DNA from: Candidatus Latescibacterota bacterium
GTDB lineage: Bacteria; Latescibacterota; UBA2968
DNA: 64,000 nucleotides
Assembly: GCA_965222605.1 (NCBI GenBank)
Contig: OZ244960.1
Coordinates: 3,360,001-3,424,000 of the forward strand
Reading direction: 5' to 3'
Below are positions 57,186 to 59,732 of this stretch, in pieces. Position 1 is the stretch's first letter. Every line of letters starts with the position of its first letter. Both the position numbers and the translations under genes were made by a program. The notes under the pieces were generated by a model. It was not told the DNA's origin and ran no database searches. It was given only the letters and a program-made list of their open reading frames with translations.

Positions 57186-57293
57186 AATATAAACAGGACT
57201 TACGCAAATCAATAGACAAAAGGGTATTCCATCCTTAAACTTCCCGCATAGGCGCGTAACGTGAACGAGGAGGAGTTTTGATGGACAAACCGA

Positions 57294-57323
57294 CCTGTCT
57301 GCGTGCGTACACGCACAGGCAGG
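57294..57323. repeat. 30-bp hairpin micro-insertion
   Basis: CCTGTCTGCGTGCGTACACGCACAGGCAGG; removal gives MDKPTSLDYCQY. Confidence 0.85.
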
Positions 57324-57379
57324 CCAGCTTGGATTACTGTCAGTATTTGCTCAGCAGTCCGATCAACTATACGCTGACG

Positions 57380-57431
57380 CCTGCCTGCTTGCCTGCGCGT
57401 TGCGCGCAAGCAGGTGCAGATGGCAGACAGG
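57380..57431. repeat. Nested micro-insertions (27-mer at 57388-57414 inside a 25-mer)
   Basis: CCTGCCTG[CTTGCCTGCGCGTTGCGCGCAAGCAGG]TGCAGATGGCAGACAGG; removal gives NYTLTHFADH. Confidence 0.88.
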
Positions 57432-58128
57432 CATTTTGCAGACCACAGCGAAGGCTTCAGCCATGATATGATCAATCGGTATCTGGCCGGAGATCGCATT
57501 GCCCCGCGCTTGGTCTGGGAACATGTCAAGTCGGCTATCGCATTAACGCCAAAGGGCTATGTGATCTTCGATGATACGGTCTTGGACAAACGCCATGCGC
57601 GAAAGATAGGACTTGTTCGTCGTCAATATAGTGGCAATGCCAAAGGGGTCATCAATGGCATCGGCGTGGTCACTTGCGTTTATGTCAATCCCGAACAAGA
57701 CCGGTTTTGGATCATTGACTATCGCATATATGACCCGCAAGGCGATGGCAAGACCAAGTTAGATCACGTCGTTGAGATGCTCTCCTTGTTGGTCTATCAA
57801 AAACACTTGCCTTTTCAGACGGTATTGATGGATAGTTGGTATGCGACCAAAGCTGTGATGCTACACATTGAGAAGTTGCAAAAAATCTATTATTGTCCCC
57901 TCAAGTCCAATCGGCGTGTGGACGATTCTTTAGGGCAATATCCCTATCAGCGAATAGATAGCCTGACTTGGACAGATAGCGAATCTCACGCAGGCAAACA
58001 CATTAAAATCAGAGGCTTTCCCAAAGACCACAAGGTGAAATTATTTCGGGTGGTGTCCTCTACCGGGCACACGGAACATGTCGTGACCAACGACAAGGCT
58101 CAAAAGGATACCCAAGTGGCACAACAGG

Positions 58129-58184
58129 CCTGTCTGCCAGAAGCACAGGCAGGCGTGCCTGCTTGCGCGCCCCGCGCAGGCAAG
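58129..58184. repeat. Two adjacent micro-insertions (25-mer 58129-58153, 27-mer 58158-58184)
   Basis: CCTGTCTGCCAGAAGCACAGGCAGG and CCTGCTTGCGCGCCCCGCGCAGGCAAG; removal gives VAQQACHWRWKIE. Confidence 0.88.
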
Positions 58185-58445
58185 TCACTGGCGCTGGAAA
58201 ATTGAGCAATTCCACCGAGAGGCAAAACAAGTCACAGGGCTTGAAAAATGTCAATGCCGCTTGGCACGCATTGTGCGAAATCACATTGGGTGTGCCTTCC
58301 TCGTTTGGCTACGCCTTGAGCAGGTCGCCTATCAAACACGACAATCCGTTTATCAGGTCAAATACGGCTTGTTGGATGACTATCTCAGACAACAACTCAA
58401 AGATCCCTCTATTCTCATGACCCTTGCGTAAGTCCTAATAAAAAT

Positions 58446-58830: not shown

Positions 58831-59732
58831 CTAAGGATCAGTCGTGATATTTCTCATAAGAATTGCCTGCACCACTTCTTGTGGCGTCTGGTAGCTCAGG
58901 GCAGAATGCCGTCGGCCCTGATTGTAATACGTCATTTGCTTGTCTATCACACAGATAAGTTCTGCCAAAGCGTCTGCTTGCATCATCAAAGTTTTGTTTT
59001 CGGTTTTGAAACGTCCCAGAAGGACTCAATCCACGGATTATCTTTTGCTCCGTTCATCGCAAAAGAAATCCCTGCACGTTCTTTGATCAACACACGATGT
59101 AACCAGTCGTATGAGGTATAAACTGAATCGCGGTCATGATGGATGAGGATGTCCGAAAGTCTCCTGTCCAAACAGGCCAAGTTATTTTGCAACTGATCCA
59201 AACAATAAATCGCCAGGGCACGATTGCGATGTGCGCCCACGCCAAAGCCTGCGATCCATCTGGTGTGGATGTCCAAAAAGGCCATTAACCACGCTTTTTT
59301 CTGTCCCTGGCAATAGCGTACTTCGGTAAAGTCGGTGCAAAAGACACACAGCGGATCAACGGTGCGGTTCTGAACTAAATTGGCGTCTTGTCCCACCTCG
59401 CTTATCAGCTTCAATACCGGATTCTTGCCACGTTTTGGCAGATGACGAGGTAAGTCCAACTCATAGGTTGACAAGAGCTTACGCAACCGCTTATGATTGA
59501 CCACGATGCCAGTACGGGCTTTTATATCTTCCTTGATGCGGCGATACCCATAACCAGGATGATGCCGGATCGTGGTTATGATCTCGTCCTTTATCTGCTC
59601 ATCTGATCTCGAACAAGATGCCTGACCGCGACGATAATGAAGCGTCCCTTTGGACAAGCCTAAGGCACGACAGCACATATTCAGACCATACCTGTCTTTA
59701 TGCCTTTCGACCAGTTCTACTTTCTCAGACAC
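58831..59732 (-). pseudogene. IS3 OrfB integrase with 1-bp frameshift near 59015
   Basis: YGYRR, TDFT, HHDR, DNPWIESFW; one more G restores GRFKTEN...YYNQGRRHSALSY. Confidence 0.82.

Follow-up and report, generated by a model that had tools for sequence, protein, structure and literature searches.

REP/REPIN sequences (REP, repetitive extragenic palindrome) are thought to move as single-stranded hairpins. Insertion sequences (ISs) of the IS200/IS605 type lack the usual inverted terminal repeats and have mismatched hairpins that are read on one strand. The small dispersed repeats (SDRs) of cyanobacteria, which Elhai and colleagues are said to have described in 2008, are reportedly 21–27-nt elements, some with a shared hairpin fold, that nest in one another and in other repeats. 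Reportedly, they were proposed as the smallest of all mobile elements; no enzyme is known for them, and they are said to be confined to one subgroup (the heterocyst-forming cyanobacteria). REP/REPIN are described as dispersed, mostly intergenic imperfect palindromes (PMC3733652, PMC3116915). Similarly, the yeast GC42 clusters and the hairpin-forming elements of sponges (RHE) are described as short, GC-rich palindromes, with no identified enzyme, that proliferate and cross species, merge or nest, and differ greatly between close relatives (PMC4478555, PMC2800124). Here we examine five hairpins of 25–30 bp that interrupt the transposase gene of an IS701-like element in a Candidatus Latescibacterota bacterium (contig OZ244960.1, positions 3,360,001 to 3,424,000; we refer to this 64-kb stretch as the window). 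The hairpins were inserted cleanly and belong to a family that is found across many bacterial phyla. We favor, with moderate confidence, the interpretation that they are very small non-autonomous mobile elements that are moved in trans, and that dead or dispensable IS copies serve as their sinks and vehicles.

Five hairpins in one IS701-like element

The IS701-like element lies at positions 57194..58437 of the window (plus strand). It is 1244 bp long, or 1110 bp without the five hairpins; its ends and length come from the sequence and from comparison with other copies. An initial annotation of the window had placed five palindromes in it, and we found their positions to be exact, including those of a nested pair. 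Hairpin 1 (57294..57323, plus strand) is 30 bp long, lies between A and C in codon 5 of the transposase, and belongs to subfamily A (CCTGTCTGCGTGCG-loop-CGCACAGGCAGG). Hairpin 2 is an inverted 25-bp member of subfamily B (CCTGTCTGCCA-nnn-GCACAGGCAGG). It is split into a left piece (57380..57387, minus strand) and a right piece (57415..57431, minus strand) by hairpin 3 (57388..57414, minus strand), which is a 27-bp member of subfamily C (CCTGCTTGCGCGC-nnn-GCGCAGGCAAG). Hairpin 4 (58129..58153, plus strand; 25 bp, subfamily B) lies between G and C, and hairpin 5 (58158..58184, plus strand; 27 bp, subfamily C) lies 4 bp downstream of hairpin 4. Within each of these subfamilies, the loop is the only part that differs between members. 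The pattern CCTGYYTGN{7,16}CARRCAGG has three matches in the window, all of them within the IS701-like element, as compared to 0.00 expected (100 shuffles). When folded as single-stranded DNA, hairpin 1, the nested pair, and hairpin 5 have energies of -9.2, -17.7, and -10.5 kcal/mol, with z scores of -2.5 to -3.1.

The five hairpins are the only breaks in the transposase gene (57281..58431, plus strand): an in-frame insert of 30 bp is followed by frameshifts from two blocks of 52 bp each. Excising the four corresponding intervals by script (134 bp) leaves 1110 bp with a stop-free frame of 338 amino acids, as the initial annotation had claimed. The repaired frame is 92.0% identical, over 338/338 residues and with 0 gaps, to the 338-aa open reading frame (ORF) of an uninterrupted copy from another genome of the same genus.

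Filled and empty sites

We compared the five sites to other copies of the IS in the source genome (G000), in the congeneric genome G002, and in relatives that we label in the same way (G001 and so on; 41 related genomes). In G002, the same IS is present in eight copies of 1110–1113 bp that lack all five hairpins, and G002 copies bear their own 5-bp target duplications (ATGAT and AGAAT). Two mutually identical paralogs in G000, which are 76% identical to the IS in the window, are also without any of the five. In a truncated paralog (G000 2120921-2121488), an identical hairpin 1 occupies the same site and hairpin 2 is present, but the nested hairpin 3 is missing. Its hairpin 2 is an uninterrupted 25-mer (at G000 2121269), and this comparison defines both pieces of hairpin 2 in the window. 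Relative to the G002 copies and the paralogs, all five sites are free of duplicated or missing bases. These comparisons bear out what the initial annotation had proposed from the window alone: the hairpins postdate the IS, encode nothing, and left neither a target duplication nor a deletion.

Clean insertions were also seen outside of this IS. A 30-bp copy of the hairpin is cleanly inserted in the leader of one TnpB-type element, and the four paralogous copies of that element are empty. In orthologous, unique intergenic DNA, a 27-bp copy is present in G031 and G034, and the site is empty in G027 (...TTCGCA^CGGCTG...). In all, we have eight pairs of filled and empty sites, and in each of them the difference is exactly a hairpin of 25–30 bp, with no target duplication. 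For one other copy in the source genome (at 5260185), no orthologous empty site was found, as the intergenic region could not be aligned with that of seven genus-mates.

There is virtually no chance that the inserts are an artefact of assembly or sequencing, and we found nothing in favor of this explanation. Four public runs from four studies (X3, X6, X13, and X16) have contigs in which all five inserts are present with 0–1 differences. Furthermore, the same hairpins occupy the same sites in two paralogs, and this is also seen at orthologous loci of two species. None of the contigs from the four runs joins across a skipped hairpin (contigs cannot reveal rare empty forms). The runs that contain the IS bear sponge-metagenome labels.

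The summed contig depth rises across 57285-57374. In X13, it is 5852 at hairpin 1 versus 84 for the rest of the IS, and in X3, it is 4291 at 57330-57374 versus 78. The rise in depth, together with indels of 3 nt in the loop at 57308, means that the hairpin has many other copies in the sampled communities, as the N-terminal part of the IS has many relatives. In JGI metagenomes, a 20-mer across the junction of the IS and hairpin 1 matched five contigs; BLAST with the IS aligned only 38–44 bp around the hairpin, and none of the five resembles the IS. At position 57326, the window has A while the contigs of all four runs, and also the IS paralogs, have C.

The host element itself has a DDE transposase, terminal inverted repeats, and a short target duplication, as expected for an IS701-like element (the name IS701 was the label given by the initial annotation). 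The inverted repeats, which we compared across IS copies, are CAGGACTTACGCAA on the left (57194..57207, plus strand) and TTGCGTAAGTCCTA on the right (58424..58437, plus strand), and they match at 13/14 positions. As initially annotated, both are intact, and so is the 5-bp target duplication, ATAAA, at 57189..57193 and 58438..58442. The duplications of the G002 copies are in the same register, so that 5-bp duplications were seen for three copies of the IS. The longest piece of the transposase ORF matches DDE_5 from Pfam (E = 4.6e-8, 33.4 bits versus a cut-off of 27), which we take to cover the IS701-type enzymes.

A hairpin family found across bacterial phyla

Members of the family are 21–36 bp long and share a basal stem of 8 bp, CCTGYCTG...CAGRCAGG, usually with a T.G mismatch at the fifth pair. 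In the commonest subfamily, a bulge of 2 nt and a second short stem are added, with a loop that varies freely. The T.G/C.A asymmetry at the fifth pair is present in 165/181 copies, most of which come from loci retrieved by a pattern in which it is specified; in an unbiased listing from G001, a large majority of the copies are also T.G-asymmetric. Among 120 non-redundant copies, the length is usually 27 bp (65 copies) or 30 bp (42 copies) and rarely 28, 29, or 31 bp.

Genome-wide scans identified about 13 copies of the hairpin in the source genome, one of which is nested within a different, REP-like hairpin. Thus, the initial observation that there were no copies in the rest of the window holds, but the motif is not confined to this IS. 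Adjacent to the IS, window 58831-59732 (minus strand) contains ORFs that look like IS3-type, including a 248-aa ORF at 58986-59732, and there is no hairpin of the family in or near them. The arm octamers occur 100–121 times each in the source genome, which is as expected for any 8-mer, so this genome is a low-copy carrier. Among the 41 related genomes, 29 have matches to CCTGYCTGN{7,16}CAGRCAGG, with 0–103 matches per genome (counted on the forward strand), while the same pattern reversed has 0 matches in all 41. The richest relatives include G029 (103 copies), G040 (73), and G001 (70), and within one genus the copy number ranges from 0 to 70. Hairpin-rich genomes contain many subfamilies that have only the 8-bp basal stem in common.

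The family extends far beyond these relatives. In a collection with one genome per prokaryotic species, the subfamily A pattern CCTGTCTGCGTGCN{3,8}GCACAGGCAGG is present in at least 120 stretches, and the 80 record titles listed for it include more than 20 phylum-level names that share its 24 specified bases. Among the taxa are Planctomycetota (anammox bacteria), Verrucomicrobiota, Kiritimatiellota, Lentisphaerota, Latescibacterota, Thermodesulfobacteriota, several classes of Pseudomonadota, Nitrospirota, Nitrospinota, Methylomirabilota, Acidobacteriota, Chloroflexota, Bacillota, Campylobacterota, Spirochaetota, Bipolaricaulota, WOR-3, and Binatia. Because the flanks of these loci are mutually unrelated and range from AT-rich through GC-rich, the cross-phylum matches are not due to contamination by one sequence. 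Rfam has no meaningful match to the hairpin (best E = 0.23). In PLSDB (plasmids from cultured bacteria) and INPHARED (phages), we found only chance partial matches of 16–24 bases, and no match covered a whole hairpin.

Some of these hairpins lie inside larger repeats, which raises the issue of whether they are mobile by themselves or are passengers in, or deletion remnants of, larger elements such as IS ends or miniature inverted-repeat transposable elements (MITEs). For several abundant subfamilies, the larger repeat is apparent. At G001 loci L014 and L026, an abundant subfamily lies inside a REP-like hairpin. An inverted-repeat element of about 130 bp (L006, L010, L011, L081, and L152), whose arms contain CCGTTGAAAAAGTC, has a subfamily A hairpin at its center, and many of the copies in G040 are probably due to this element. 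Also, one IS is present at both L183 and L184, and each of these two copies has the same three hairpins. Nevertheless, we consider it most improbable that passengers or remnants account for the family. The eight pairs of filled and empty sites, which differ by exactly the hairpin, already contradict this explanation where they occur. The lengths are tight (107/120 copies are 27 or 30 bp), unlike those of deletion remnants. Finally, 13-mers from the left arm are about as numerous as whole hairpins, with no excess of solitary arms, which implies that there is no larger parent element. On the basis of the tight lengths and the arm counts, we specifically rejected deletion of a long palindromic MITE as the source of the hairpins.

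Two other repeats adjoin some copies. At L007, a 40-bp repeat (1527-1566) is next to the hairpin. It occurs at about 60 places per genome in genus g6 (G027, G030, G031, G033–G035, and G037), including in genomes without any CCTG hairpin. In the metagenome contigs L225, L226, and L227/L228, hairpins follow AAACCGA and are amid repeated AACCGAC-like heptamers. A heptamer context is said to have been reported for the cyanobacterial SDRs as well, and the setting of L225–L228 resembles it.

Junctions and nesting

Among the 120 non-redundant copies, C follows the insertion (+1) in 101, G or A precedes it (-1) in 63 and 39, respectively, and there is a pyrimidine at -2 in 88. Otherwise, the flanks are unbiased (-12 to -3), with no tetranucleotide and no duplication. 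Copies are often nested in one another and in other hairpins. Specifically, 19/111 sites are within the loop of a perfect stem (at least 5 bp) that was already there, often right after its left arm, versus 48/888 control junctions. Copies are also strongly clustered; for example, locus L182 has nine copies within 1.8 kb. The loop triplets of 66 copies match neither the flanking sequence nor its complement beyond chance, and we rejected the idea that the loop derives from the target. Similarly, we rejected synthesis of one arm by folding back on the other, because the arms are kept non-complementary (the mismatch is retained).

The junctions bear on whether any dedicated enzyme is needed. During replication or repair, a stalled strand might pair by 1–3 bases with a hairpin elsewhere, copy it, and return, so that the hairpins would be a by-product of template switching in any recipient bacterium. 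The first base of the element, C, is the same as the +1 flank in 101/120 copies, and its last base, G, is the same as the -1 flank in 63/120. In the window, site 4 shares three bases (AGG) and site 1 shares two bases (CC) with the ends of the element. Template switching would also allow for spread across phyla without gene transfer, and it would be consistent with the lack of a candidate enzyme that tracks copy number (see below). However, every pair of filled and empty sites has junctions that coincide exactly with the base of the stem, where template switching should give ragged ends and partial copies, and a single base of homology is hardly enough. Conservation of the T.G mismatch and the bulge suggests recognition, beyond mere pairing, and the copy number varies between 0 and 70 among species of one genus. 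We consider template switching to be unlikely.

Hairpins in intergenic DNA and in insertion sequences

Across phyla, just 21% of 81 copies fall within an ORF of at least 150 amino acids, versus 73% of 779 positions drawn at random from those loci. This fits with one of the two possibilities raised by the initial annotation, that the hairpins survive in dispensable DNA. Intergenic copies lie in divergent gaps in 18/56 cases and in convergent gaps in 6/56. Relative to the flanking ORFs, we found no bias in orientation, either in tandem gaps (12 sense versus 20 antisense) or inside ORFs (10 sense versus 9 antisense). Given the lack of orientation bias and the rarity of copies between convergent ORFs, we rejected a terminator-like role. 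In G001, by eye, copies of 24 bp (L015 1501-1524) and 30 bp (L016 1501-1530) lie in frame at the first codons of ORFs, and one of the two ORFs looks like a signal peptide. These two cases, as read by eye, suggest that in-frame copies can persist in coding DNA.

The other possibility raised initially was that a host system directs the hairpins at transposons so as to inactivate them. In the source genome, 8/13 copies are in repeated DNA, which makes up 16.3% of the genome. In the clusters of hairpins in G029, 5/7 scanned ORFs match transposase families (one of them weakly, E = 0.0038); these clusters were chosen for their density and are a biased sample. Together with five hits in a single 1.1-kb IS, and with a second family of hairpins in the same family of ISs (described below), these findings speak in favor of such a system. 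On the other hand, most copies are in plain intergenic DNA, including in records with more than 20 phylum-level names, and the ORFs adjoining 66 copies across phyla belong to housekeeping families. One of the clean pairs of filled and empty sites is in unique intergenic DNA, and clustering and nesting are general to the hairpin family. The eight IS copies in G002 are untouched even though G002 has hairpins, and related ISs in G016 and G010 (at least 10 match rows each) are untouched as well. Some inserts maintain the reading frame, including hairpin 1 and a 27-bp insert that leaves 347-aa ORFs in two paralogs. Also, we did not find an associated gene. Overall, we consider it very unlikely that the hairpins are directed at this IS or at ISs in general, and that part of the initial annotation is not supported. 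IS relics do collect hairpins, but we read them as sinks and vehicles instead of targets.

The second hairpin family (GGTGTACAACTGCGnnAGCAGTTC) is 27 bp long and unrelated to the first, and it has at least 48 copies in the source genome (with up to 5 mismatches in 24 positions). Its members are present in frame in both of the 76%-identical paralogs of the IS (G000:C1 3012204 and 3723865), whose ORFs have 347 amino acids, not 338. That a second hairpin has entered the same IS family supports the view that these ISs are sinks. A GGTGTACAACTGCGnnAGCAGTTC hairpin is also inserted in one TnpB-type element (at about 1414 kb) relative to four other copies. The GTAC at the head of this family resembles a REP tag. 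The source genome has about 20 copies of TnpB-only elements (IS1341/IS605-type), each with a 377-aa ORF and with mutual identity of 70–91% (for example, 233467-234597 and 2013169-2014299).

The search for a mover

We found no gene that travels with the hairpins. In an all-against-all comparison of 3130 ORFs from 120 loci, the largest family was one of ATPases, with members in 11 loci. We also took the two longest ORFs next to each of 66 copies (131 ORFs), and they belong to housekeeping families, as do the ORFs in control windows 2 kb away. Among the 25 families listed (of 131) next to copies, there is one transposase family, Y2_Tnp, with one member; as the Pfam tallies list 25 of 131 and 25 of 190 families, single weak matches to transposases may be hidden.

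We also asked if the abundance of candidate enzymes follows that of the hairpins. Across the 41 relatives, neither Y1_Tnp, Y2_Tnp, nor RVT_1 tracks the copy number. For example, G040 has 73 copies and zero matches to any of the three, while G021 is without copies (0) but has 75 matches to Y1. In G001, with its 70 copies, one Y1 match is interrupted by a stop and the other is partial. The source genome has just one good match to the Y1 transposase (354399-354758). Conversely, there were no hairpins within 1.5 kb of 14 Y1 loci. Since no gene accompanies the hairpins, something must act on them in trans. This agrees with the initial proposal of a trans-acting enzyme that inserts hairpins cleanly, insofar as the insertion is clean and no gene accompanies it.

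Reverse transcriptases are relevant because the hairpins could, in principle, be transcribed, reverse-transcribed, and inserted. RNA-mediated spread was reportedly proposed for the cyanobacterial SDRs. A precedent from yeast mitochondrial GC clusters is argued in a section of PMC4478555. In RNA, the T.G mismatch would be a G.U pair, and contigs from an RNA library cover the inserts, which could reflect carry-over of DNA. But at E ≤ 1e-8, RVT_1 is missing from three of the four richest relatives (G001, G029, and G040) and from the source genome. The lack of orientation bias relative to the flanking ORFs, and the many copies in divergent intergenic regions, also argue against transcripts as intermediates. 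We consider this route to be quite unlikely.

A possible mechanism

In the interpretation that we favor, new copies of the hairpin are made from existing ones, with both arms being faithfully copied, and something acting in trans would place them at new sites without duplicating the target. Insertion occurs mostly between a purine and C, with hairpin-forming DNA, including other copies, being favored; this preference would account for the nests and clusters. The element may move as a folded single strand, with a transesterifying enzyme that acts like HUH enzymes or topoisomerases cutting and rejoining it at the base of the stem, next to a purine-C step. As the enzyme is not encoded beside the copies, it would be either widespread (a conserved host enzyme) or itself mobile or transferred. 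The IS in the window would be dispensable DNA where hits persist and also a vehicle that carries hairpins, not a target. Its transposase would have been killed by three or four primary hits, followed by one or two secondary ones that landed next to or within earlier copies (hairpin 3 within hairpin 2, and hairpin 5 four bases from hairpin 4). Copies of such an IS, when duplicated or transferred, would carry their hairpins along, as L183 and L184 may illustrate. The data establish the clean insertion, the membership in a family, its distribution, the nesting, the bias toward intergenic DNA, and the lack of a linked gene; the single-strand intermediate, the type of enzyme, and the role of ISs as sinks and vehicles are our inference.

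Several observations weigh against this interpretation. First, none of the three candidate enzyme families tracks the copy number, and G040 and G021 are opposite extremes. Second, IS relics in the source genome and in the G029 clusters have more hits than tolerance of insertions obviously predicts. Third, hairpins 1 and 2 are identical at 55/55 positions between the IS in the window and the truncated paralog, while the flanking IS is identical at 448/502. This could mean that the same two sites were hit independently and recently, an outcome that the weak preference for insertion between a purine and C does not predict. Fourth, hairpin 4 (25 nt), which is one of the four that were folded alone as DNA, folds weakly (-4.6 kcal/mol, z = -1.0). 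Fifth, single-strand elements of the IS200/IS605 type are often strand-biased, and the G029 chromosome has 36 forward and 35 reverse copies with no strand bias (its origin is unmapped). Sixth, some of the copy number is due to hitch-hiking inside larger repeats, so that counts overstate the number of independent insertions. Finally, movement was not observed in real time.

A more ambitious version of this idea is that the hairpin is a pan-bacterial selfish element, the smallest mobile element known (21–36 nt), that is nearly invariant across phyla, that relies on a conserved host enzyme that handles single-stranded DNA, and that crosses between phyla as a passenger of ISs and MITEs such as the IS in the window. 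It would have no transposase of its own; the enzyme might be like a type IA topoisomerase or an HUH enzyme, or the hairpins might be propagated through the handling of CTG-rich hairpins by the primase or the replisome. We find this version doubtful, and we prefer the more limited proposal of small hairpins that are moved in trans by a widespread or a mobile enzyme.

Implications and comparison to known systems

If our interpretation is correct, then a sequence of 27–30 nt is mobile DNA in many phyla, with no gene of its own nearby, and the lower limit on the size of transposable elements is pushed down. It would also raise the question of which enzyme can recognize a stem of 8 bp that has a T.G mismatch and can join DNA at the base of this stem while leaving the target unduplicated. 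Inserts break genes, as in the transposase in the window, and they appear to lengthen others in frame (in G001). The hairpins mark relics of ISs, and they can confuse gene calling and the annotation of repeats in metagenome-assembled genomes. Nesting provides a natural record of the order of insertion and can be used to date IS copies. A compact sequence that is integrated scarlessly by some enzyme could also be of interest for genome engineering.

We found no description of this hairpin family in print, and it may have been listed previously in supplementary tables of repeats. The main text of PMC3733652, to which our search of that paper was confined, does not contain the motif. The hairpins lack the defining features of REP/RAYT systems, of IS200/IS605 derivatives, and of MITEs that are mobilized by DDE transposases.

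REP/REPIN sequences and their RAYT (TnpA-REP) are similar in that they involve imperfect palindromes of 20–40 bp that are dispersed, mainly extragenic, often clustered, and sometimes within genes, and that lack a target duplication. In contrast to REP, the hairpins have no GTAG or CGTC tag, just a purine at -1 and C at +1, and there is no flanking or co-varying Y1 gene (PF01797). Families of REP match their lineage and their own RAYT, whereas the sequence of the hairpin is nearly invariant across more than 20 phylum-level names. Copies of the hairpin also nest inside each other. IS200/IS605 derivatives also lack a target duplication, but they have two distinct subterminal hairpins and insert 3' of a fixed word of 4–5 nt. 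In our family, a single hairpin is the whole element, the target rule involves one or two bases, and Y1 genes do not track the copies. As for MITEs that are mobilized by DDE transposases, they too are short and non-autonomous with inverted ends and many copies, but the hairpins show no target duplication (in eight pairs), no parent IS, and no recurrent neighboring gene. Furthermore, at 21–36 bp, the hairpins would presumably be too short to bend into a double-stranded synapse.

The remaining parallels are with elements that have no identified enzyme. From their reported description, the cyanobacterial SDRs may be alike in size, fold, and nesting; they are reportedly confined to one subgroup of cyanobacteria, whereas the hairpins are spread across phyla. 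The mitochondrial GC clusters and hairpin-forming elements are also tiny palindromes that proliferate and nest. In contrast to our family, the GC clusters are organellar and 30–45 nt or longer, with a putative AG target duplication according to a section of PMC4478555. The hairpins that we have described are in bacterial chromosomes, they insert without any duplication, and one sequence is common to many phyla.

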